Shown here: positions 507-22,900 of the stretch, piece by piece
Numbering within the stretch: position 1 is the first letter of the stretch
How the letters are laid out: each line of letters starts with the position of its first letter
Assembly (NCBI GenBank): GCA_934778205.1
Contig: CAKVOD010000004.1
Coordinates: 40,219 to 64,218, forward strand
DNA from: an uncultured Clostridia bacterium
GTDB taxonomy: Bacteria; Bacillota; Clostridia; Christensenellales; UBA1242
Direction of reading: 5' to 3'
Length of the DNA stretch: 24,000 bases
Position numbers and translations under genes: made by a program
Notes under the pieces: generated by a model
What the model saw: only the letters and a program-made list of their open reading frames with translations
Databases searched by the model: none
Told to the model about the DNA's origin: nothing

Positions 507-2000
507 TTACCCTTTGTATTTGACAATGATTGTTTTAATCCACTTAATTCTTTGCTCAAAATTATCCCTTGAATCTCTATGATATTTAATATTTTGGAAG
601 AAAGGTGTATTTCCTTCTTTATCCACCTTTTCTTTTTCAAAATTGCGAAAATCTTCTAACATATTATTTAAATTTTCCAAACCAATCAAATTCTTTCTTG
701 CTAAACTAACAAATGTTAGTGATACCTCAAACAAAATCATATTTATTGGCGAATTATTCTCTAATCTGAATGCGTTTTGCCCCAAATATTTTAATGCGTC
801 TGAATATGATTGTAAAAAATCTTTTTCAATTTCATCAATCTGTTCGTCAGAAAAGGTATTAATTGCATCCATTGCTTCTGATAAAAAAGTATTTATTTCA
901 TTATACTCCACATTATGAGTAATTAATTTGCCATCATAATGTTTTAATTTGCCCTCAATATATAAACGCATTGCTATATATCTAAGCATTAAATACCTAT
1001 CTTTCATTCTATTTTTAGCGCTCAATGATAGAACATCTAATTCCTCAGATAATTTTTTCAACATATCCGTAATAGGTCCTTGATGCAAAGCGTGTCTAAG
1101 TTCTTGATTATTGAGTTTTATTCCCCCTTGATTTACTCTTTTGAATATTTGCAATTTGAATATTTCAGAAGTTTCAAATCCAACCCTAATAATATGCAAA
1201 TGAGCATCTTCTAATTTTGCTTTGTATTTTTCTAAATCTTCTGTTGAATTATTTGTCAAATCTCTACATTTTTTACCATTTAAATTCGTTAAAAATTCTA
1301 ATCCTCTTAGAGGATATTTATTATTTAAAAACTCAAATATAGCGGATAATCTTTGTCTCCCATCAATAACAATCAAGCTATTATTCTTGCCTTCATATAC
1401 GTAAATATATGGTATAGGAATTCCCAATAAAAGACTTTCTATTAATTGGCTTTTTTTCACGGAATTCCAAATGTTGTTTCGTTGAAATGTTTCATTAAGT
1501 ATAATTGCTCCAGAGCTACTACCAGAAAGAGTTCTATCATATCTTCTTTTTAACTCATAAACAGAATAATTCACTGGCTCACATTCAACATATTTCTTCT
1601 GTATATCATCAAAATTATTATCGTCATAATCATCACAAGACAAATCTTCATCTATCGTAGCTTCAGTATATGTATCAGACAACTTATTTTGATTGTATAA
1701 ATAGTATTCTGATGCAAATAAGCGTTGTTCACCCTCATTATTAATTGTCATAGTTGATAGATTTGAATCATAATCAACAAATCGTGGGTAGATTTTTTTG
1801 TGAGAAATTAAATTCCTTACTTTTTGACTAAATCTAGTATCTTTTCTTCCAAACAATATTTCAGCATCTTCACCTTGTGGATCTAAAACTTTTATCAATG
1901 ATTTTACTAAATCACTTGTCGTGATTGTACCTCCAACTCTATAAATTTCAAACAAAGCTGGATCTATCAATTCTTCTTCACAATATCTTTTTTCTTCCAT
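507..2000 (-). CDS. DUF262 (ParB/Srx-fold, GmrSD N-terminal-half-like) protein with an extra ~140-aa N-terminal region
   Basis: 497-aa ORF. DUF262 signatures are ETFQRNNIWNSVKKSQLIESLLLGIPIP and VIDGRQRLSAIFEFL, then NQGGIKLNNQELRHA. I saw no DUF1524/His-Me nuclease motif in the C-terminal half. Strong RBS AAGGAG 6 nt upstream of the ATG at 2000. Confidence 0.8.
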   Translation of the reverse strand: MEEKRYCEEELIDPALFEIYRVGGTITTSDLVKSLIKVLDPQGEDAEILFGRKDTRFSQKVRNLISHKKIYPRFVDYDSNLSTMTINNEGEQRLFASEYYLYNQNKLSDTYTEATIDEDLSCDDYDDNNFDDIQKKYVECEPVNYSVYELKRRYDRTLSGSSSGAIILNETFQRNNIWNSVKKSQLIESLLLGIPIPYIYVYEGKNNSLIVIDGRQRLSAIFEFLNNKYPLRGLEFLTNLNGKKCRDLTNNSTEDLEKYKAKLEDAHLHIIRVGFETSEIFKLQIFKRVNQGGIKLNNQELRHALHQGPITDMLKKLSEELDVLSLSAKNRMKDRYLMLRYIAMRLYIEGKLKHYDGKLITHNVEYNEINTFLSEAMDAINTFSDEQIDEIEKDFLQSYSDALKYLGQNAFRLENNSPINMILFEVSLTFVSLARKNLIGLENLNNMLEDFRNFEKEKVDKEGNTPFFQNIKYHRDSRDNFEQRIKWIKTIIVKYKG

Positions 2001-2010
2001 AAAAAACTCC

Positions 2011-3132
2011 TTAATAATTCATAATAATTAAATGCTTTACTTCTTTTTTGTTCCTATTTTTAAAACTTACAAAATAAGATTTGTTCTCTTCTATTATTCT
2101 TAATCCCTTATTTATATACAAACTTTTAATGAAATCTGTCTCTTTTATAACCAGCATAAAACGACATTTGCATTCATTTGTTAAATAATTAGCCAGTCTT
2201 ATTTGATCTTCCATCCCAAACGCATTCTTATCATATTCACTAAATGTAGTATCATATGGCGGATCTAAGAACATAAAGTCATTAGAATTAATTTCTATAT
2301 TATTTACGAAATCATAGAAATCATTTGTAGATAACGCGGTATTGTTTAATAATTCTCGCAAACTTTTTAATTTATAATAGGCTAATTTTGTCTTTAAAGT
2401 TTTTTTGTTATAAGAAACTCCTCCATATGGCACATTGAATCCTCCATTACTATTAAATCTAAACATAGAAGAATAACAATACTCCCTTATAAATAAATAA
2501 ACTGCAACCTTCCTTTTATTATCCAATCCTGCATACTCTTTAGGATTATTATAAGCATCTCTTAAATAAGTATAATATGCTGATTTAATACCTGCCTCTA
2601 AGTTGTTTTTTAACTCTTCACCTTCCAATTTTCTTTCTTTTTTTATCTCATTCTTTTTGATTAAGTTTATCCTTCTCAAAAGGCATTCTGATAAATATTT
2701 CTCAAACTTCACATTATTTCTTAAATTGAACATTGGTATATCATCAATCTTTTCATTTATAATTAAGCTTAAATCACTGGATATTTCTAAATTCTCATTT
2801 TCTCTAAATCTTAAATATAAGTTCATTAATCTTACATCATTTGCTAATTCTGTAAGCTTATCCCAATTTTGTATAATGTTTGTCAATTCATCAAAAAACG
2901 GTTTGCTATGGCTCTTTACATATTCGTATAAAAGCATTAACTCTTCTGATTTGTCATTTATATAATTTTTATTGTTGTTCGCCAAAGCGAAATAAACCGC
3001 TCCCCCGCCTACAAACGGCTCTATGTAATTATTAATCCCTTGTGGTAAATTATCAAGTATAATATTCAACTCAGATGTTTTCCCCCCAGGATACTTTAAT
3101 AACGGTTTTAAATTTTTATCTATATACATCAA
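2011..3132 (-). CDS. D12-class (Dam-like, alpha-type) N6-adenine DNA methyltransferase
   Basis: 373-aa ORF. N-terminal LKYPGGKTSEL and IEPFVGGGAVYF (AdoMet motif I), C-terminal FLDPPYDTT (catalytic motif IV). The track start at 3132 is TTG; the next codon (3129) is ATG, and either could be the real start. Confidence 0.9.
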   Translation of the reverse strand: MMYIDKNLKPLLKYPGGKTSELNIILDNLPQGINNYIEPFVGGGAVYFALANNNKNYINDKSEELMLLYEYVKSHSKPFFDELTNIIQNWDKLTELANDVRLMNLYLRFRENENLEISSDLSLIINEKIDDIPMFNLRNNVKFEKYLSECLLRRINLIKKNEIKKERKLEGEELKNNLEAGIKSAYYTYLRDAYNNPKEYAGLDNKRKVAVYLFIREYCYSSMFRFNSNGGFNVPYGGVSYNKKTLKTKLAYYKLKSLRELLNNTALSTNDFYDFVNNIEINSNDFMFLDPPYDTTFSEYDKNAFGMEDQIRLANYLTNECKCRFMLVIKETDFIKSLYINKGLRIIEENKSYFVSFKNRNKKEVKHLIIMNY

Positions 3133-7721: not shown

Positions 7722-10289
7722 TTAAATCACTATCCAATTGTTGACATTTCCAGCGCCAGAAATAGTTATCGTGATATTTGTATCGGCAGTAACACCGTTC
7801 TCATATATTTTCTTGCGCGTTGTTTCCGTTACGCCAGCGGTTGCGTCATTGAACGTGCAAACCGAATACAATGTCTCATATACCATTATTGAAAACTTGG
7901 TACTTACTTCGATTTGAAAGGAATAACTTTTGCCATTTTGTGCAACAACTTGCCTTGTCGGATTGTTGTCCGCATCCAAAATGTACACAATAAAATCTCT
8001 ATCAATTTTTATATCAAAAGTGATTTGTACATATTTTGTTGTTGAAGGCGTTGTACTTTCTTCCCAGTTAGCGGTGTACAATTTATTTCCATATCCTGAA
8101 ACACGCATATTTAGTCTCTTAGTACTACTTGTTGGACTAGTCCACCCCGTGAAAGTATAGCCTGATTTCACAGGTGTTCCTAAGTAAAATCCACTTGTAC
8201 TATTAGTATATGATGTCACCTTATTAGAAAGTATACCGCCGTCTAGATTGTAGGCAATTATATACTCAATATCTCCAAATCCAACATCTTTGACATAAAT
8301 CGTAGCATCACTATCCCCCGCAGTATAATATGTGATAGGGTTAGTGCCATCTTCGTTGAGCGAAAAAGTTGCAGAGATGGTCTTTTTCCCTATCTTACTA
8401 TATAGGTTTATCTTTGATAAATTAATCAACATTCCTTTTTTCAAAGATATACAACTAATAGTATTAGAAGATGATGCACTAGATTCATACTTAAATGACA
8501 ACGTAACTGTATCAAATTTCAAATAAGGGGCACCATGCCCGTTACCATACTCATCACCATCACTTCCGTCATTTTGAAAATCCCAAACCGTATCAAAATT
8601 CCACGAATAATTTGCATCCCAATGTGTGGATGCCGAAAATTGCGACTTATTGTGCGCTAAGGCATCTAGCTCTGTTTTGCTTTTTCTAACAACATTATTA
8701 AACGTATTGGCGTCACCCGCTGATATCCTTCCACCACTTGAATCATCTAAGCATATGCCACTAATGTTATCCCCATAAGATGTTGTTCCTGCCATATATC
8801 CCCAAAATTGAGTACCTATAAAAGCTGTCCCATTACCATTCCATGGTATAAAATCAACAGCATTCAAGCATTGCTGAATTTTCGCACCTAAAGATAAATA
8901 TCCCGCAATTCCACCCATATATACGGACACTGTCATATTTGATGGGGGTTCACATAGTCTTATATAATTGACACAATTTACGATAATTCCATTATCAATA
9001 TATCCTACAATCCCACCTATACTAGATCCATTTGACCCCTTAAAATACTCCGACACGCTCACTATGGTGCCATCGCCGACACAATTGCTCACGATAGAAG
9101 ATTCAGTTGTCACTTTTCCGACAATACCCCCCACAAAAAGCCCATCACCATTACTGCGACCACTCAAATTCATATTGACCCATCCTCTACTATTAGACAC
9201 TTTGCCTCCTTCCGATAGTCCGACTACGCCACCTATATAAGTCATATCTCCATAATAGATGCCATCAGCGCTACATGAACCACTAGACTTTTCAACGGTA
9301 ACACCACTTCCAATTTTACCGGCGATACCACCTAAATAACCGTCTTTACATCTATCTACACTTGGCGAATTATTGCTAAAGCAGCCGCTTATAGTCCCTT
9401 TGATCATTTGCCCGATAATACCACCGCTATAAATATCATATCGATCCACTATCCGATTCACCTCAATCGTAGCACAGTTAAAACAATTAGTGATATTTAA
9501 TGTTCCGCCTCCGCCTTGAGAACCAACTATTCCGCCGACATATTCGGCCTGTTGTCCAGAATCGTAAAAATAAATCGTTCCATAATTGTGACAATTTTCT
9601 ATATTAACACTTCCACTACTACCAATTTGTTGTACTGCTCCAACTATTCCGCCTGCTTGCGAACCCCCTGAAATTATAATTTCAGCCGTGTTATAACAAT
9701 TTTTTATTGTTACTGTTGAAGAATTAGGCCGCAAAAAAACTTGCTTCGCAATTGCTCCAATAACAGCAGTTGAAGTAGGGCTAATTGTCCCTCCTATTCC
9801 TACATTCAAAATCTGCGCACCAGAATTCAGTCTAACAAATAATCCATTATAAGCACTATCAAAAGTGATTACTTTGTTATTGCCATCAAAAATGCCATTA
9901 AAGCTTGAAATCCCGTCCCAATGCATCTCTTCCCCAACAACTATATATGTTGCAGGAACGCTAATGTCGGCAGTCAATTTGTATGATTTATCTAAAAGCG
10001 TATTTCCGCTCGCATCGGCACCTCCCTTCAAATATAGCAATTGCTCAAAGGTTGCAATTTGATATGGGTTTGATTCCGTACCGTCGCCAGCGGCAAAACT
10101 CGTTGCGACATTGACAGTGTTTGCACTATCCACTGAGATTGTTTTCTGTGGATTTTTTGCTGTGTTCAAAGTGATTGCAAGCACCAAGCCGACACACGAC
10201 AAAACCAACAAAAGCCACAGCACGATTTGAACTGGAGCGAATAGGTGTTTATTCAGTTTTACATTGTTGTTTTTGTTGAGGTTTTTCAT
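7722..10289 (-). CDS. Large signal-anchored surface protein with GLUG-type repeats and a Listeria-Bacteroides (Flg_new) repeat
   Basis: 855 aa. The N-terminus is basic then hydrophobic (LFAPVQIVLWLLLVLSCVGLVLAITL). At least 8 G-G-I/V-V/A-G motifs are present (AGGIVGAV, VGGIVGSQ, SGGIIGQM, LGGIAGKI, IGGVVGLS, VGGIVGKV, IGGIVGYI, MGGIAGYL). YNLDGG...GYTFTGWTS is typical of the Flg_new repeat. RBS GGAGGTG lies upstream of the ATG at 10289. Confidence 0.85.
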   Translation of the reverse strand: MKNLNKNNNVKLNKHLFAPVQIVLWLLLVLSCVGLVLAITLNTAKNPQKTISVDSANTVNVATSFAAGDGTESNPYQIATFEQLLYLKGGADASGNTLLDKSYKLTADISVPATYIVVGEEMHWDGISSFNGIFDGNNKVITFDSAYNGLFVRLNSGAQILNVGIGGTISPTSTAVIGAIAKQVFLRPNSSTVTIKNCYNTAEIIISGGSQAGGIVGAVQQIGSSGSVNIENCHNYGTIYFYDSGQQAEYVGGIVGSQGGGGTLNITNCFNCATIEVNRIVDRYDIYSGGIIGQMIKGTISGCFSNNSPSVDRCKDGYLGGIAGKIGSGVTVEKSSGSCSADGIYYGDMTYIGGVVGLSEGGKVSNSRGWVNMNLSGRSNGDGLFVGGIVGKVTTESSIVSNCVGDGTIVSVSEYFKGSNGSSIGGIVGYIDNGIIVNCVNYIRLCEPPSNMTVSVYMGGIAGYLSLGAKIQQCLNAVDFIPWNGNGTAFIGTQFWGYMAGTTSYGDNISGICLDDSSGGRISAGDANTFNNVVRKSKTELDALAHNKSQFSASTHWDANYSWNFDTVWDFQNDGSDGDEYGNGHGAPYLKFDTVTLSFKYESSASSSNTISCISLKKGMLINLSKINLYSKIGKKTISATFSLNEDGTNPITYYTAGDSDATIYVKDVGFGDIEYIIAYNLDGGILSNKVTSYTNSTSGFYLGTPVKSGYTFTGWTSPTSSTKRLNMRVSGYGNKLYTANWEESTTPSTTKYVQITFDIKIDRDFIVYILDADNNPTRQVVAQNGKSYSFQIEVSTKFSIMVYETLYSVCTFNDATAGVTETTRKKIYENGVTADTNITITISGAGNVNNWIVI

Positions 10290-10373
10290 TACATCACCTC
10301 CACAACGCGGGCGTTGTTTACGACAATGCTGAAAGGACTCAAATTGAGGCTTTTATGGCTTTTGGTGGATAGA

Positions 10374-10433
10374 CCCCTTCCGGGAGATTTCTCCGCTGCA
10401 GCGAACAAGTTCGCTTTCGGTCGAAATGACAAA
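10374..10433 (-). repeat. Interspersed three-hairpin element, copy A (in the 5' leader of the GLUG gene)
   Basis: The plus strand reads CCCCTTCCGGGAGATTTCTCC-GCTGCA-GCGAACAAGTTCGC-TTTCGGTCGAAATGACAAA. The conserved flanks are identical to copy B at 22466-22529. Confidence 0.6.
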
Positions 10434-10584
10434 AAGAATGTACGCTGTCCGTCCTCCATTGTTTGGCACTCAAGTTCAATATCAGTGCAAGAGTCGTTTT
10501 CAATTGCTTGCGAGTCTTGTAAATATTGCAAGTTCTTGCAGAAATGTTGTTGTTTTTCGCAGTTTAACCTATCAAAATAATAGG

Positions 10585-10638
10585 TTAAACTACATACCCC
10601 CCCCCCCCCATTCGTGGAGCATTTGTTCTATTATTCAT
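10585..10638 (-). promoter_or_regulatory. 17-codon leader ORF containing the G13 tract (MNNRTNAPRMGGGGYVV*)
   Basis: RBS GAGGTG, 6 nt, ATG at 10638. The G tract begins inside codon 10. With 13 G the frame stops at TAA 10587-10585. Confidence 0.45.
10597..10609 (-). repeat. Homopolymeric tract, 13 G on the coding strand (13 C on plus)
   Basis: Counted directly from the sequence: ...tacata CCCCCCCCCCCCC attcgtgg.... Confidence 0.95.
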
Positions 10639-10670
10639 TTGTTTCACCTCACTTAATGAATTATAAATTT

Positions 10671-10699
10671 AGTTTACCACAATTATGAAAAAATATCAA
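10671..10699 (-). promoter_or_regulatory. Promoter of the GLUG-gene leader (TTGATA-17-TGGTAAACT, extended -10)
   Basis: Minus strand: TTGATA (10699-10694), 17 nt, TGG TAAACT (-10 at 10676-10671). Two TGCAAAA direct repeats 11 bp apart lie just upstream (plus strand 10703-10720). Confidence 0.55.
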
Positions 10700-10814
10700 A
10701 TGTTTTGCAGTATTTTTGCACTTTTTGTGAAAATGTTAATTCCCTGTTAATTCTCTATTGATTCTCAACGTGCTATTTTGATAGTTGCAAGCACGTGATT
10801 TTATCTAGACATCA

Positions 10815-10847
10815 ACAAAAAACACTCAAATGGTTTTGTTTGAGTGC
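10815..10847 (-). terminator. Rho-independent terminator after the CNNM transporter gene
   Basis: Minus strand: CACTCAAA-CAAAACCA-TTTGAGTG followed by TTTTTTG. Confidence 0.65.
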
Positions 10848-12561: not shown

Positions 12562-15500
12562 CTAACCGAGATAATAATCGGTCATTTTGTTTATTAAACA
12601 ATTTGTAATCAAGCCCATTCCATCTGCATTAGGATGCACTCTATCTATTGTATAGGTGCTTGCCGTTTCAATATTTATTCCGCTATCAGCATAAACATCT
12701 ACAACAGGGCAACCATAGTGCGTCGCGATTGCTTTTATGATATCATTAAATTCATTGATAACTGCAGTTGGATTTACATTGCCGTTGTAATCTTTGTAAT
12801 TTGCATTATTATCCACAAATCCCGCATAATGAATTGTCATACAAAATACGTCTGCGCTACTATATTTTTGCGTCATTTTATAAATCATTAGAGCGTACGC
12901 TTCGTCAAATGACGACGGCACTGTCAGTGTTCCGTTTTCGATTTTCGTAAATAGGTCATCCGTCACAACTTTGTGCGCAACTGGACTACCTAATTGACAA
13001 AAGTCGTTCGTACCCATAAATACAGCGATTACGTCAGGCTGTTTCCCTGTGTTGTCATTGTGAAGATTTACTGAACGCGTATTCCACGCCGAACTAGCAT
13101 CGGTATTGCCCGACCCTGACAAATAAGTATGCGAACCAGACCACGAATTGTTAACGCAAAGATTCATTCCAAGTTGATTTATCGTTCGCATCCACCATGT
13201 GTCATTGACTGAAAGTGTTTTCAAAATACCAGGATACGCTACAGCATTTCCACCAATTGTTGAGTTATACTTTGTGATGTTGTTGTATCCCGAATATGTG
13301 CTAATACTATCGCCCAAAATTGATAAACTTTTCCCTTTCAATACGCTTTTCACTGATTTAGTACCATAAAAACCAATCGGCAAATTAATTATATTAGTAA
13401 AATTTGTTTTTCCATTTATAGTTTTTATTCCTAAATTGCTTGAAATGACATCAAAATAATATACCAAAACAATTGTGTCTGTCGCTGAGCCAAAAGCCAA
13501 TGTTTGCCCTGACTTTACGCGAATATCAAGATTGTCAAACGTGACCCAACCACCTGTCGTGCTATAATTTTGCGTAAAAGCAGTAATTTGCGTGGCATTC
13601 ATTGTCAATTTTTGCGAACTAATTATTGTGTGCGAACCGTCCGTTTCGGCTTCAGCACCTACTATGTGCAAAGTAAATTCCGCTGAAGATGTTGAATTTA
13701 TTTTCTTTACTGGTAGTACAATTCTGTTTATAATCGTTTTTTCAAACATACTTGTGCCATACATCCAAATGAACTCATTATTAACAGTTAATTCCTTCCA
13801 TTTACTATCAGCTGAAACATCTAAATTAAACAATTGTTGCTCATTGACGCCAGTCAATGAATCAAGTGGCGTAACATCGTATTGCGTGTAGCCATATATA
13901 TCAATAACTAAACTATAATTTTGATATTTTTGCCCACTTGCCCACGAAGTAAAGGCACGGTCGGTGTTTGTATTCTTTGTCGAGTACAACAAAGTTATCG
14001 TGTCGTCACTCGCGCAAAATGCTATTGTTTGCTGGACGCCGACATCAATGTTTAACTCATCAAATGTCAGCCACACAGCGCATTTATCACTTGAAGTATC
14101 CGCCGTCTGTAGCGCTTTCCACTTCGCAATTTCACTTGCCGTAAGTATTAGGTTATAACTGCGCGCGACTTCTCCATTTGTGGTGTTGACAACACTGACA
14201 GTCAAAAAGGCGTTCAGATCATTTATTATATTATAAACAGGCACAACAAATTTTGTAATTGTTTTATTTTCAAACACCTTGCTATTTGAGTACGCAAATA
14301 ACCCGCTTGAGGAAAGATTGTTTAGTACGGCAAATTCTTGCGAATCAAGAGATAGTTTTGAACTTACAATTTCTTTCGCTGAGTTGCTTTGCAATAAGTT
14401 TGAGTATCTATCCCCTCTTTGAACATAGACATCAATAGGCAGTATACCACCTGACCACCCCAACCACGTTGGCGAAATCATTATTCGCTCAGTATCCTCT
14501 GTTCCGCTAAAAAATAGAATACCCATTGTTCCGCTATTCCAGCAACCAAAGGCGATTGTTTCGTCTTTTCCTACGTCAATGTTGAGATTGTCAAATGTTA
14601 TCCACGATTGTCGCTGAAAATTTTTGAACTGCGCTTCTGTAAGTGACAATTTGTGCGTCGAACGCAAGTAATCACTTTGAAACTCCGCTTGCTGCACGCC
14701 ATTTTCATATTCTTCGCCCTTGCTTCTATCAATTTTTTTGTTGATTACAAACAAGTTTATATAAGCGCCGCTTGCATTTGTGACTGATGCGTCGATTTGA
14801 TATATAGGTACAGTGAGTTTAGTTATTACCCTGCCCGAAATTCGATTCGTTATATCTTCATTGAAGCGCCAAATGTAATTGGGATTTAATGTTGCTGTAT
14901 CAGCAAATGTTTCATACTTCATAGCAATAGAATTTTGCATCAACAAATAGTCATTGCCCGACCGTCCATATATATCCAAAAGAAGCGAAGAACTTGTTAC
15001 CACCTCCCATGTTGTTTGAGATTCTGTATTTGTTTTACAAACATAATACGCATGAGATGAGTTCTCGTCTGCTATGCCATTTGCATAGCCTATTGATACT
15101 GTGTCCGCGCTATCCGTAAAGGCAAGTGTTTCATCGTTGCCAACAAGTATATTTAGATTACTGAACATTACCCACTTATTTTTGTCGTCCGCATTCCAAT
15201 CAATTATTTGTTCTTCACTCATTTCTAAGCGGTAAGTTCGCACAACGTCAAATTTTCCGCGAGTGGCTTTTATTACTTTAACCGTCCAAAACTTCACACC
15301 TGCCGATTCATTGATTGAATACACAGGCGCAACGATTTTTGTTATTAGTTTATCTTTGAATAAATCGGTATTTTTATAAACATATCCATTGACAGAAGAT
15401 GTCACGTTATCTAATTTTGTGGTCGCACTTTCGCCCAAAATATTGCTAGAAAGCCCAGTTGTTAATCTATCACTATAAGCAAAAACATCGAACATTAGCG

Positions 15501-16149
15501 AAAACATTGTTATGTCCCACCACTGTCCTTTTTGGACATAATCTTTACCACACCCATAAAACCCACGTCCACCTATCTTTTGTTTGCTATAACAAACTCC
15601 GAGTGAGTCATTATAACTTACAAAGGCGAGGGTTTCACCATCTAAAACTTTAATATTCAAATCTTTAAATGTCACCCACGCCCCGATAATAGGATTAAAT
15701 GAATCAATAAATTCTTGAGACACGTATAACTTATGCGTTTGATGTACCTCGAATGCCCCTTTTTTATTTGAAATTACAAAAACCGTCATAAAAACATTGC
15801 TAGTTGCTTTGATTTGATAAACAGGTGCAACAATTTTTGTTATTGTTTTGTTTTCAAACATATTTAGATTTTCAAAACAATATGGACCAAATTTATTTTC
15901 ACCATTACCCGCATTTAAATTTAAATAATTTTGATCAGCGCCAAAACCAATATTACCTTCGCCAGTCAATGCGGGGAATAAATCAAAACTATCTCCTGCA
16001 ACACAGTTCGTAAGTTCTACAGGCGTCGGCTGTTTAAATCTAATTACACCCCACGCACTTTTGCTGGAACTCAACGCCGACAAAGTTGTGGCGCAAACAA
16101 TCATCAAAAAAACTACTAGCACCCAAGTCAAGAACGCAACATTTTGCAA
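12562..16149 (-). CDS. Large signal-anchored surface protein: five copies of an unassigned ~175-aa domain plus a C-terminal SGNH/GDSL hydrolase. The 5' end is apparently frameshifted by the G13 tract.
   Basis: 1195-aa ORF whose track start is a TTG with no RBS. The hydrophobic anchor is LTWVLVVFLMIVCATTLSAL. The SGNH blocks are LSILGDSIS (G at 13314-13312), FMGTNDF and DRVHPNADG. An ATG at 16246 with RBS AGGAG joins this frame if the tract has 12 or 15 G. Confidence 0.85.
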   Translation of the reverse strand: MQNVAFLTWVLVVFLMIVCATTLSALSSSKSAWGVIRFKQPTPVELTNCVAGDSFDLFPALTGEGNIGFGADQNYLNLNAGNGENKFGPYCFENLNMFENKTITKIVAPVYQIKATSNVFMTVFVISNKKGAFEVHQTHKLYVSQEFIDSFNPIIGAWVTFKDLNIKVLDGETLAFVSYNDSLGVCYSKQKIGGRGFYGCGKDYVQKGQWWDITMFSLMFDVFAYSDRLTTGLSSNILGESATTKLDNVTSSVNGYVYKNTDLFKDKLITKIVAPVYSINESAGVKFWTVKVIKATRGKFDVVRTYRLEMSEEQIIDWNADDKNKWVMFSNLNILVGNDETLAFTDSADTVSIGYANGIADENSSHAYYVCKTNTESQTTWEVVTSSSLLLDIYGRSGNDYLLMQNSIAMKYETFADTATLNPNYIWRFNEDITNRISGRVITKLTVPIYQIDASVTNASGAYINLFVINKKIDRSKGEEYENGVQQAEFQSDYLRSTHKLSLTEAQFKNFQRQSWITFDNLNIDVGKDETIAFGCWNSGTMGILFFSGTEDTERIMISPTWLGWSGGILPIDVYVQRGDRYSNLLQSNSAKEIVSSKLSLDSQEFAVLNNLSSSGLFAYSNSKVFENKTITKFVVPVYNIINDLNAFLTVSVVNTTNGEVARSYNLILTASEIAKWKALQTADTSSDKCAVWLTFDELNIDVGVQQTIAFCASDDTITLLYSTKNTNTDRAFTSWASGQKYQNYSLVIDIYGYTQYDVTPLDSLTGVNEQQLFNLDVSADSKWKELTVNNEFIWMYGTSMFEKTIINRIVLPVKKINSTSSAEFTLHIVGAEAETDGSHTIISSQKLTMNATQITAFTQNYSTTGGWVTFDNLDIRVKSGQTLAFGSATDTIVLVYYFDVISSNLGIKTINGKTNFTNIINLPIGFYGTKSVKSVLKGKSLSILGDSISTYSGYNNITKYNSTIGGNAVAYPGILKTLSVNDTWWMRTINQLGMNLCVNNSWSGSHTYLSGSGNTDASSAWNTRSVNLHNDNTGKQPDVIAVFMGTNDFCQLGSPVAHKVVTDDLFTKIENGTLTVPSSFDEAYALMIYKMTQKYSSADVFCMTIHYAGFVDNNANYKDYNGNVNPTAVINEFNDIIKAIATHYGCPVVDVYADSGINIETASTYTIDRVHPNADGMGLITNCLINKMTDYYLG

Positions 16150-16201: not shown

Positions 16202-16246
16202 CTATGCCCCCCCCCCCCCGTTTATGTTCTTGTTTTTAAAAATCAT
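16202..16246 (-). promoter_or_regulatory. 14-codon leader ORF containing the G13 tract (MIFKNKNINGGGGA*); probably the true 5' end of the SGNH-protein CDS in the ON phase
   Basis: RBS TAGGAGC, 7 nt, ATG at 16246. Reading ATG ATT TTT AAA AAC AAG AAC ATA AAC then G13 gives GCA TAG. I checked that removing one G puts this ATG in frame with TTG CAA AAT GTT GCG at 16149. Confidence 0.6.
16207..16219 (-). repeat. Homopolymeric tract, 13 G on the coding strand (13 C on plus)
   Basis: Counted directly from the sequence: ...cctatg CCCCCCCCCCCCC gtttatg.... Confidence 0.95.
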
Positions 16247-16282: not shown

Positions 16283-16311
16283 ATTTTAACACAATCAAAA
16301 AAAAATATCAA
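16283..16311 (-). promoter_or_regulatory. Promoter of the SGNH surface-protein gene (TTGATA-17-TGTTAAAAT, extended -10)
   Basis: Minus strand: TTGATA (16311-16306), 17 nt, TGT TAAAAT (-10 at 16288-16283). Two TGACAAA direct repeats 10 bp apart lie just upstream (plus strand 16317-16333). Confidence 0.55.
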
Positions 16312-16383: not shown

Positions 16384-16422
16384 TTCACACACCAAACCTA
16401 TAGCCGTGCGCTTTCGCACCCC
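16384..16422 (-). repeat. Solo copy of the structured 'GTG-stem-CAC GGCTnnAGGT' element, immediately after the nrdG stop
   Basis: Minus strand: TAA CG GGGTGCGAAAGCGCACGGCTATAGGTTTGGTGTGTGAA. The hairpin is GTGCG-AAAG-CGCAC. Related copies lie at 22574-22900. Confidence 0.55.
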
Positions 16423-16423
16423 G

Positions 16424-16939
16424 TTAGAGCCATTTGGGGGAGGTGACGAGAACAGTTTGCGACAATCGCAAACTCTCCTGCACATCAATAACCCGCTGAT
16501 TGCTTGACCCACGAAACTTGAGCGTGTAATCACGCAAACTTTCAATAAATTCGCCGTCAATCAAAACGTCCGCATACGCTAGCAATTCTTTTATGCACGT
16601 TGCATCTTTTGCACACAAGTCCTCAAAGGTATAACCCGTGTAAATTGCTAAATGAAGTCCACGTTCTTTTATCATCTTAGCAAGTGGCACAAGCGATTCA
16701 ACTTGACACATAGGTTCGCCACCAGAAAATGTCACACCGTCTAAAAGCGGATTGGAATCAATCTGTTCCATTATTTCAGCGGGCGTCATCAATGTTTTTT
16801 CAACAAAAGGTTGCGTGGCCGAATTGTGACAGCCCTTGCACTTGCGCGGACAGCCTTGCACAAATAATACGTAGCGCAATCCTACACCATCAACGATTGA
16901 ATCATTGACTGTGCCCGCTACATTAATAAGATTTTCCAT
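16424..16939 (-). CDS. nrdG: Anaerobic ribonucleoside-triphosphate reductase activating protein (radical SAM)
   Basis: 171 aa. ...GVGLRYVLFVQGCPRKCKGCHN... cluster and ...GVTFSGGEP.... It lies directly downstream of nrdD. Confidence 0.9.
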   Translation of the reverse strand: MENLINVAGTVNDSIVDGVGLRYVLFVQGCPRKCKGCHNSATQPFVEKTLMTPAEIMEQIDSNPLLDGVTFSGGEPMCQVESLVPLAKMIKERGLHLAIYTGYTFEDLCAKDATCIKELLAYADVLIDGEFIESLRDYTLKFRGSSNQRVIDVQESLRLSQTVLVTSPKWL

Positions 16940-22465: not shown

Positions 22466-22529
22466 CCCCTTCCGGGAGATTTCTCCACTACAAAGGCTTT
22501 GACAAGCCTTTTTCGGTCGAAATGACAAA
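22466..22529 (-). repeat. Interspersed three-hairpin element, copy B (between dnaB and xth)
   Basis: The plus strand reads CCCCTTCCGGGAGATTTCTCC-ACTACA-AAGGCTTTGACAAGCCTT-TTTCGGTCGAAATGACAAA. The flanks are the same as copy A, but the middle hairpin has a different sequence. Confidence 0.6.
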
Positions 22530-22573
22530 TAGCCTATGTCCCTTACGACAACTCCAATATGCAAAGTACATCG

Positions 22574-22900
22574 TTCACACACACCAAACCTGCACCTGTG
22601 GTGTATGCCACCGAGAACTAAAACTAATTTGAAATGCAAAGCTGCGCCACACACACAAACAACTTGCACGTAGAAAAGTACCTGCAGCCGTGAGGCTTTC
22701 CCCACACGAAAGTAAGAGTATATAAAATATACGTAAGCGTGCCGGATTCAAAACTAAATTACTTGTAGGAATAGTACCTGCAGCCGTGAGGCTTTCCCCA
22801 CACGAAAGTAAGAGTATATAAAATATACGTAAGCGTGCCGGATTCAAAACTAAATTACTTGTAGGAATAGTACCTGCAGCCGTGCGCTATCGCACCCACC
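22574..22900 (-). repeat. Tandem array of a ~96-bp structured unit: one diverged copy, two identical copies, and a terminal partial copy abutting the dnaB stop
   Basis: GTACCTGCAGCCGTG recurs at 22678, 22774 and 22870 (period 96). Units 22678-22773 and 22774-22869 are identical base for base. 22574-22677 is a diverged relative. Confidence 0.85.

Follow-up and report, generated by a model that had tools for sequence, protein, structure and literature searches.

A homopolymeric G tract in the leader of a surface-protein gene

We analysed a 24,000-nucleotide (nt) stretch of DNA from an uncultured Clostridia bacterium (hereafter referred to as the window), in which a run of 13 consecutive G residues (G13) lies in the transcribed leader of a gene for an 855-amino acid (aa) protein. 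The locus is read on the minus strand, and the coordinates given for it refer to that strand. The main open reading frame (ORF; 7722–10289) encodes a protein with an N-terminal membrane anchor, a GLUG motif, a Listeria-Bacteroides repeat and a family-specific C-terminus (...NVNNWIVI). Its start codon is preceded, at a distance of 7 nt, by a Shine-Dalgarno sequence of its own, GGAGG (10297–10301), which lies within the last codons of the upstream ORF described below.

The leader starts from a sigma-70-type promoter with an extended -10 element (10671–10699), in which TTGATA (10699–10694) is followed, after 17 nt, by TG-n-TAAACT, with the -10 hexamer ending at 10671; transcription is predicted to start near 10664. 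The sequence GAGGTG (10645–10650) serves as the Shine-Dalgarno sequence of a leader ORF, 6 nt ahead of its ATG at 10638. Ten codons into this ORF, after MNNRTNAPRM, lies the slippage-prone G13 tract (10597–10609), whose first G completes the ATG codon of the last M in this peptide. An earlier note on this DNA had proposed the promoter, the ribosome-binding site, the start codon, the peptide and the 13 G residues, all of which were confirmed by our reading of the minus strand; the promoter was also recovered by a consensus scan. Further upstream, at the 3′ end of the CNNM/CorC gene, a terminator-like hairpin with a T run (CACTCAAAC...GTTTGAGTG, then TTTTTTG; 10816–10846) isolates the leader transcript from upstream transcription. 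A hairpin scan found the same stem, but reported it on the plus strand. The G13 tract exceeds the length of about 8 nt from which homopolymers and short tandem repeats are expected to slip; G13 occurs twice in the window and was absent from 100 dinucleotide shuffles.

Tract length and the reach of leader translation

To evaluate the effects of tract length on the leader ORF, we translated the leader with each number of G residues. As sequenced (G13), the leader ORF (MNNRTNAPRMGGGGYVV; 10585–10638) has 17 codons and ends at a TAA (10587–10585). With G12 it has 15 codons and ends in GGT ATG TAG, and at G12, G13 and G15 alike the stop codon lies 2–4 codons past the tract. Only at G11, G14 or G17 does the frame open into a potential upstream ORF (10289–10638) of 115 codons (G11) or 116 codons (G14). 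This long upstream ORF ends GTG GAG GTG ATG TAA TG, such that its TAA (10291–10289) shares one base with the main ATG (10289–10287). These translations agree in full with the frames that the earlier note had assigned to G11, G12, G13 and G14. The progression from 15 to 17 to 116 codons at G12, G13 and G14 is the frame dependence expected of a contingency locus, and the distance that ribosomes would travel along the leader in each frame is a direct reading of the sequence.

The frame of the long upstream ORF is free of stop codons over the 307-nt leader, which occurred in shuffled sequences with a probability (P) of about 0.001, and the other two frames contain 5 and 8 stops. Homologues of the long upstream ORF have been called as proteins in other assemblies (P0001, P0002, P0003 and P0043). 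A programmed frameshift that would join the upstream and main ORFs was considered and rejected: the main ORF lies in the -1 frame, there is no slippery site, and a TGA in the main frame is located 6 nt upstream.

A cassette family in uncultured Clostridia

We searched one genome per GTDB species with the pattern TTTGATATTTTT-N(68–95)-G9 and found that 18 of the 35 matches carry the same arrangement as the window. These 18 copies reside in four metagenome-assembled genomes (MAGs) whose titles read uncultured Clostridia or Lachnospiraceae: CALDMJ01 has six copies, CAZSGM01 and JBNMHN01 have five each, and CAZAYL01 has two. With the addition of the two copies of the window and those of related assemblies (L003, L013–L015), 24 copies were examined. 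All of them have TTGATA, a 17-nt spacer and TG-TAnAnT, followed by a Shine-Dalgarno sequence, an ATG, 6–12 codons and G10–G16. Of these features, only the -35 hexamer was prescribed by the search pattern, and not the extended -10 element or the others; the unrelated matches lack this combination. The arrangement thus found amounts to a cassette of about 120 nt, composed of an extended -10 promoter, a strong Shine-Dalgarno sequence, an ATG, 6–12 codons and poly-G.

Twelve copies, including the second cassette of the window, were followed by enough downstream sequence to be evaluated. In every one of them the leader is joined in frame to an ORF of 324–1227 aa (or more, where the contig runs out first) at a single tract length, and stops appear within 1–9 codons in the remaining two frames. 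As assembled, five of these fused copies are in the on frame and seven in the off frame. In the family proteins, a cytoplasmic tail at the N-terminus is followed by a single membrane segment, and the C-terminus is shared (...N.W[IL]V[IV]). We conclude that the G13 tract upstream of the 855-aa gene is best viewed as a simple-sequence-repeat contingency switch and is a member of a conserved cassette family that heads hypervariable, membrane-anchored surface-protein genes in uncultured, spore-forming gut Clostridia.

The second cassette of the window illustrates the arrangement of the fused copies. Its promoter (16283–16311, minus strand; TTGATA, 17 nt, TG-n-TAAAAT) is followed by a leader (16202–16246, minus strand) in which AGGAG precedes an ATG at 16246, the peptide MIFKNKNIN, a G13 tract (16219–16207) and GCA TAG. 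The two cassettes of the window align across the promoter and have the post-tract motif C.KQ...CK.LQ in common. As sequenced, the second cassette is off; G12 or G15 fuses the leader in frame to give a 1227-aa protein. The body of this protein, a GDSL-lipase-like surface protein of 1195 aa (12562–16149, minus strand), was called from an internal TTG, and gene callers give the lipase-like ORF 1180–1216 aa, starting from internal codons or contig ends. The 1227-aa on-state form was not found among the members of its 90% cluster, which are 1180–1197 aa only. The second cassette is a classical in-gene switch.

Contigs that carry cassettes often start or end in or beside the poly-G tract (L004, L007, L008, L010, L019–L043), and for seven or eight of the 18 GTDB copies the nearest contig end is no more than about 100 nt away. 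As a result, the family is systematically broken up, and under-annotated, in MAGs. Such contig breaks are compatible with heterogeneity in tract length, and equally with poor sequencing of poly-G. The GTDB scan also returned, outside the cassette family, G10–G11 tracts located 8–10 codons into genes after a similar -35 box in Mycoplasmopsis bovis/agalactiae (L022, L048) and Helicobacter anseris (L045). The genes in L022 and L048 encode lipoprotein-like N-termini. All of these tracts exemplify the classical arrangement, which is well known from such organisms.

A split form of the cassette gene in three lineages

The 855-aa locus differs from the fused copies in that the upstream ORF is set apart from the gene body by a change of frame. 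The upstream ORF nevertheless aligns with the N-terminal tails of the fused paralogues, with a Gly run and, about 25 residues on, CK.LQY. The fused paralogues have no Shine-Dalgarno-preceded ATG ahead of the membrane segment, which argues that the split form is the derived one. In this comparison of sequences, the ancestral N-terminal tail has been split off to become the 116-codon upstream ORF, and the body has acquired its own Shine-Dalgarno sequence. The earlier note had included neither the second G13 cassette, nor the membership in a cassette family, nor this origin of the upstream ORF.

We found the split form in three diverged lineages. In lineage A (the window, L013 and L014), the locus lies between CNNM and enolase, and the upstream ORFs have 116, 116 and 135 codons, respectively, with a TAATG overlap. 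Lineage B (L015), in which the locus follows FloA, has 74 codons and ATGA; lineage C (L059, L060 and L061), between TruA and rplM, has 103 codons and ATGA. Lineage C came to light through P0005 and P0006, the only useful matches in a homologue search with the 855-aa protein, which otherwise returned mostly distant GLUG proteins. In all three lineages the frame of the upstream ORF contains no stops, as compared with 5–13 in the other frames; the probability of such an open frame arising by chance, given above for the window, is about 0.0003 for L014 and 0.01 for L015. From about 25 residues past the Gly run onwards, the peptides are unrelated. The leader of L014 contains a 57-nt insertion that is read through in frame, and L061 differs from L059 in the last two upstream codons while keeping the ATGA overlap. 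The GGAGG-7 nt-ATG arrangement of the main gene is also present in lineages B and C.

The stop/start overlap (TAATG in A, ATGA in B and C) is thus conserved among homologues, which is the criterion used for inferring translational coupling (PMC3711429). Because three diverged lineages keep the upstream ORF stop-free at different lengths and with unrelated peptides, each ending on the main start, the comparison supports the notion that the long upstream ORF is under selection, as is the stop/start overlap. It is translatability up to the main start that is conserved, and not the peptide.

The gene behind the leader is far less constant. At the syntenic site, the 855-aa protein of the window is replaced by proteins of 675 or 647 aa (L013, 6336–8363, and L014), with about 30% identity in the centre; the N-terminal anchor and the last 100 or so residues are conserved between these strains. 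The leader is 96–98% identical across the strains whose main proteins share about 30% centrally. By these alignments, the 855-aa locus is hypervariable between strains, and the differences in the main protein, together with the constant leader, fit a cassette-anchored gene replacement.

Within the leader of the window lies one copy of a dispersed repeat of about 60 nt (10374–10434, minus strand; TGTCATTTCGACCGAA ... GGAGAAATCTCCCGGAAGGGG), which the long upstream ORF reads through in frame. Further copies are intergenic (window 22466–22532, minus strand; L015 9420–9480), and the repeat is absent from the leaders of lineages B and C. Its central hairpin varies among copies yet stays self-complementary, and the repeat has no Rfam match.

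Variation in tract length and hybrid contigs

We then compared tract lengths at orthologous loci. At the lineage A locus, G13 is present in five contigs from four samples (assembled with SPAdes and MEGAHIT), and G15 in L013 and L014, from two samples. In the G15 contigs, gene callers have the long frame start at an internal ATG that lacks a Shine-Dalgarno sequence (MLHEW...; P0001, P0002). In lineage B the tract is again G13, which opens the long ORF there because the codon preceding the tract is ATA; in lineage C it is G14, a short-ORF state. L013 (G15) and L059 (G14) come from the same sample, representing one genome with two lengths, and the paralogous cassettes range from G10 to G16, with on and off frames both present. 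Tract length differs both between loci and between strains, which is the polymorphism that marks contingency loci. The proposal of the earlier note that the tract is a slipped-strand switch is supported by the G13 and G15 orthologues and by the paralogues in on and off frames, and tabulating related strains, as it had suggested, showed that the orthologues do carry the homopolymer. A search for further contigs through the neighbouring genes yielded only more G13 tracts, or contigs ending inside the leader, and no new lengths; a scan of JGI metagenomes with the post-tract pattern GGGGGGGGGTATGTNNTTTAAC yielded one unrelated contig and no orthologues.

Two contigs are hybrids. In L003 (2589–2693), a DivIVA-side upstream region is about 88% identical in the promoter and the start of the leader, and identity is 100% from the tract on. 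In L062 (600–733), an upstream region of the TruA side (lineage C) leads into a G16 tract and then into a leader and gene of the L013 type. The latter, possibly chimeric contig provides the only long-frame case at locus A that starts from the proper ATG (P0043, 117 aa). Both joins fall exactly at the poly-G tract; they may be assembly chimeras over a shared stretch of about 47 nt containing the homopolymer, or real cassette recombination. As the joins coincide with the tract, and as the gene body is replaced while the leader remains 96–98% identical, one may speculate that the cassettes are also hot spots of recombination through which hypervariable surface-protein genes pass from one expression site to another. 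Combined with the upstream-ORF variant, this would constitute a two-layer antigenic variation, by slippage and by recombination, in uncultured gut Clostridia. We regard this extension as doubtful.

A conserved hairpin downstream of the tract

The leader RNA is predicted to form a hairpin that starts 4 nt past the tract (10559–10593). The earlier note had described a perfect hairpin of 11 bp with the TAA in its 5′ arm; the hairpin and the position of the stop hold, whereas its size is larger, with perfect arms of 12 nt (10561–10572 and 10580–10591) and, including G-U pairs, a stem of 16 bp (10593–10559) with a folding energy of −19.7 kcal/mol (z = −7 against shuffles). Both off-frame stops, those of G12 and G13, lie inside the 5′ arm. 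The hairpin is kept in lineages A, B and C: 89.6% of the cells of the three-sequence alignment are paired, as compared with 25–46% for slid partners. At three pairs both bases have changed, and the G-U pairs agree with the sense strand; a shuffle control, with three sequences only, was not significant.

The hairpin may act as a site of pausing or of processing, or it may block reinitiation once translation has terminated early. We rejected a role as an intrinsic terminator, since the stem is followed by GCGAAAAACAAC instead of a T run and is not called by a terminator scan. A search of Rfam over the whole window at the gathering score returned one tRNA and chance-level matches only, and a search of the leader (10200–10760) with E values up to 10 returned nothing except two chance-level small-RNA matches; the leader is therefore not a known riboswitch or small RNA.

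Proposed mechanism and alternative explanations

The explanation that we consider best, with a probability of roughly 0.6, is that the tract works as a poly-G contingency switch of the cassette family, in a derived form that acts via a translationally coupled upstream ORF. Replication slippage would alter the tract length. At G11, G14 or G17, ribosomes from the leader start would cross the whole 307-nt leader and terminate on TAATG, feeding the main start through termination-reinitiation; the translating ribosomes would also keep the leader covered and shield it from polarity or RNA decay. At other lengths, G13 as sequenced included, ribosomes would stop 2–4 codons past the tract, in the 5′ arm of the hairpin, and the main gene would rely on unaided initiation at its own ribosome-binding site. 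The outcome would be heritable and reversible alternation between high and basal expression, and not strict on/off switching. Control of the 855-aa gene by the tract is plausible and is backed by the comparison of lineages; we infer slippage within populations, as well as the direction and the size of the effect on the main gene. The effect is most likely modulatory, because the main gene has its own strong ribosome-binding site that is not hidden by folding, and the caveat to this end in the earlier note, which gave the site as GGAGGTG, stands. Of the two mechanisms put forward there, termination-reinitiation fits the conserved stop/start overlap, whereas the unfolding of a leader that hides the ribosome-binding site is not supported, since the predicted occlusion is weak and inconsistent between lineages. 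In the minimum-energy fold of the whole leader, CUCCAC, just before the tract, pairs with the GUGGAG of the main gene; this anti-Shine-Dalgarno sequence is absent from L015 (lineage B). We rejected a sequestered ribosome-binding site as a conserved mechanism on this ground, together with the low z score of the fold and the lineage-dependent pairing that are given below.

Several observations weigh against a switch that works through the coupled upstream ORF. The GGAGG of the main ORF is strong and ideally spaced. The whole-leader fold has a z score of −1.9 only, and by base-pair probabilities the main Shine-Dalgarno sequence is partly paired in the window, otherwise paired in L013/L014, and open in L015. 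The leader contains no striking C-rich, G-poor (Rho-type) stretch, with a C/G ratio of at most 1.7 in the window and an unremarkable one in L015. Within the lineage of the 855-aa strain the tract length is invariant, G13 being found in five contigs at the first locus and in three contigs at the second, and the slippage rate may be modest, lower than in bacteria without mismatch repair. No cleanly assembled orthologue of the 855-aa locus is in the long-ORF frame. In addition, the frames could be blurred if translation or transcription slipped on the 13 G residues.

Some of these observations would suit a relic of a switch, in which the upstream ORF is a leftover of the N-terminal tail, the 855-aa gene is expressed constitutively from its own Shine-Dalgarno sequence and the tract has no effect: the GGAGG is strong, it is not reliably occluded in the folds, and all clean orthologous assemblies are in short-ORF frames. 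A relic would gain stops, whereas three lineages with unrelated sequences and different lengths stay open, at the low chance probabilities given above, retain a stop on the main start, and accommodate a 57-nt in-frame insertion without stops; the leader is, moreover, far more conserved than the gene behind it. We consider a relic unlikely, though deserving of attention. Attenuation by a leader peptide, as in pil1 of Streptococcus gallolyticus, would make the post-tract hairpin a premature terminator melted only by the ribosome that translates the long peptide. The order of elements is suggestive, in that a repeat within a leader-peptide ORF is followed by a conserved stem-loop whose stability (−19.7 kcal/mol) resembles that of pil1 (−18.7 kcal/mol), but the T run, of which pil1 requires 6 T, is missing and the scan calls no terminator. 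The short-frame stops also lie in the 5′ arm, so that the stem would be melted by terminating ribosomes whatever the frame, a situation equivalent to the high state of pil1. This makes attenuation quite improbable.

Frame-independent control at the level of RNA, graded by tract length and exerted by a C/U-rich small RNA that binds the G run in the manner of RepG or by a G-quadruplex, would draw on the location of the G run in the transcribed leader and on the precedent of RepG, where the length of a G repeat in the leader sets expression gradually. Yet every tract of the cassette family lies 6–12 codons into an ORF with a Shine-Dalgarno sequence and is followed by immediate stops in two frames, the signature of a frame switch, and no candidate small RNA was seen in the window, where the Rfam searches likewise yielded none; we hold such control to be very improbable. 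That G13 could be an error of sequencing or assembly (two-colour poly-G or a collapsed homopolymer), with an accidental frame pattern, is brought to mind by the many contigs that break at or beside the tracts and by a G49 run at the end of contig L040, an unrelated match of the scan, which does look like a true artefact. An internal G13 with identical flanks was, however, recovered in SPAdes, MEGAHIT and Logan assemblies from several samples, the tract occupies a fixed spot of a conserved cassette in several MAGs, and G13 never arose in the shuffles, so that we give next to no weight to an artefact. Hardly more credible is an antisense gene, by which the open frame would merely mirror a 111-aa ORF on the plus strand (10245–10580). 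Long stop-free antisense stretches are present in the window (111 and 102 codons; lineage A) and in L015 (99 codons; lineage B), but not in lineage C, where the longest has 48 codons; the antisense ORF has no Pfam match and would need a promoter inside the main ORF, and the frame that every lineage keeps open up to the main start is the sense one.

Relation to known systems

Poly-G/C contingency loci of Campylobacter jejuni, Helicobacter pylori, Neisseria and Haemophilus are the classical cases of translational phase variation. The cassette family resembles them in having G tracts of about 8–16 nt in the 5′ coding region of surface-related genes, with many loci per genome, lengths that vary by locus and strain, and on and off frames mixed in one genome. 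The second cassette of the window (16207–16219), like most family members, is exactly of the Campylobacter/Helicobacter/Neisseria poly-G type. It is the host, a spore-forming member of the Clostridia, and the use of one promoter-leader cassette in all copies that set the family apart; at the 855-aa locus, furthermore, the tract lies in a separate upstream ORF and not in the gene. Two additional ATG codons ahead of the tract in this leader recall the multi-start, three-level switches of the Haemophilus lic loci. The one at 10622 (minus strand) is in the +1 frame, would open the long ORF at G12 or G15, lacks a Shine-Dalgarno sequence and is not kept in lineage B; the other, at 10611 (minus strand), is in frame with the main leader start.

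In Neisseria, the poly-G tract of hpuA affects hpuB through polarity of the phase-variable upstream gene. The 855-aa locus is similar to coupled gene pairs with ATGA or TAATG junctions, in that the upstream stop overlaps the downstream start and homologues retain this overlap. Unlike the functional protein genes of such pairs, the upstream partner at this locus is a poorly conserved ORF of variable length.

The closest known system, by analogy, appears to be the leader-peptide phase variation of pil1/pil3 in S. gallolyticus, where a (GCAGA)n repeat within the leader-peptide ORF determines whether the ribosomes get as far as a terminator and melt it (Danne et al. 2014, PMC3894217). Both systems have a slippage-prone repeat inside a short leader-peptide ORF with its own ribosome-binding site, upstream of a gene for a surface structure; in both, a frameshift changes how far ribosomes reach along the leader, a stable stem-loop follows the repeat, and several loci per genome use the device. 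High versus basal output, as in pil1, is what we propose here. The repeat here is a homopolymer instead of (GCAGA)n, and the effector of pil1, an intrinsic terminator (stem and 6 T) between the leader stop and the gene, has no counterpart at the 855-aa locus, where no T run is found. The long ORF here has about 100 codons and overlaps the main start, which points to translational coupling, and it derives from the N-terminal tail of in-frame paralogues; neither is the case for pil1.

Two further systems have repeats in messenger RNA leaders. The leader of H. pylori tlpB contains a G repeat targeted by the small RNA RepG, resulting in gradual control of expression (PMC8295292). A variable G repeat in the leader of a surface-related gene is common to both loci; that of tlpB is an untranslated target of a small RNA, whereas the repeat here is translated as Gly codons with frame-specific stops. 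In Haemophilus influenzae hmw1A, a heptamer repeat in the 5′ untranslated region is part of a hairpin processed by RNase III (PMC12721329). The transcribed repeat in a long 5′ leader and the conserved RNA hairpin are features in common with the 855-aa locus, but the hmw1A repeat itself forms a hairpin arm and the leader has no ORF; a role of RNase III here would be pure speculation.

In the open-access subset of the literature, we found no report of this cassette family or of poly-G phase variation in gut Clostridia; the papers retrieved on phase variation in gut Firmicutes deal mainly with DNA inversions and methylation. The cassette-bearing Clostridia that we encountered come mainly from Hadza metagenomes. 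Abundant, uncultured, spore-forming gut Clostridia appear to possess a set of poly-G contingency loci in the style of Campylobacter, in which one shared cassette varies large hypervariable surface proteins that are likely targets of immunoglobulin A and phages. The split locus offers a clean test case for the contribution of coupling to a gene with a strong ribosome-binding site of its own. For the analysis of metagenomes, the tracts break contigs and may create chimeric joins, and they mislead gene callers, which report 1195 aa instead of 1227 aa for the lipase-like protein and call upstream ORFs from an internal ATG.

Other features of the window

A tandem repeat with a unit of 96 nt (22673–22884; 2.2 copies, 99% identity) lies upstream of an exonuclease III-like gene, and each unit consists of a hairpin followed by GGCTGCAGGT. 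Similar hairpins with GGCT(G/A)(C/T)AGGT motifs are located at about 16385–16425 and 22590–22625. At 507–3132 (minus strand), a D12-class adenine methyltransferase (373 aa) is encoded beside a GmrSD_N/DUF262 protein (497 aa), and this region is likely a defence or restriction-modification cluster. An AAA_15/AAA_21 ATPase is encoded just beyond the end of the window, as marked by Pfam on contig L052.

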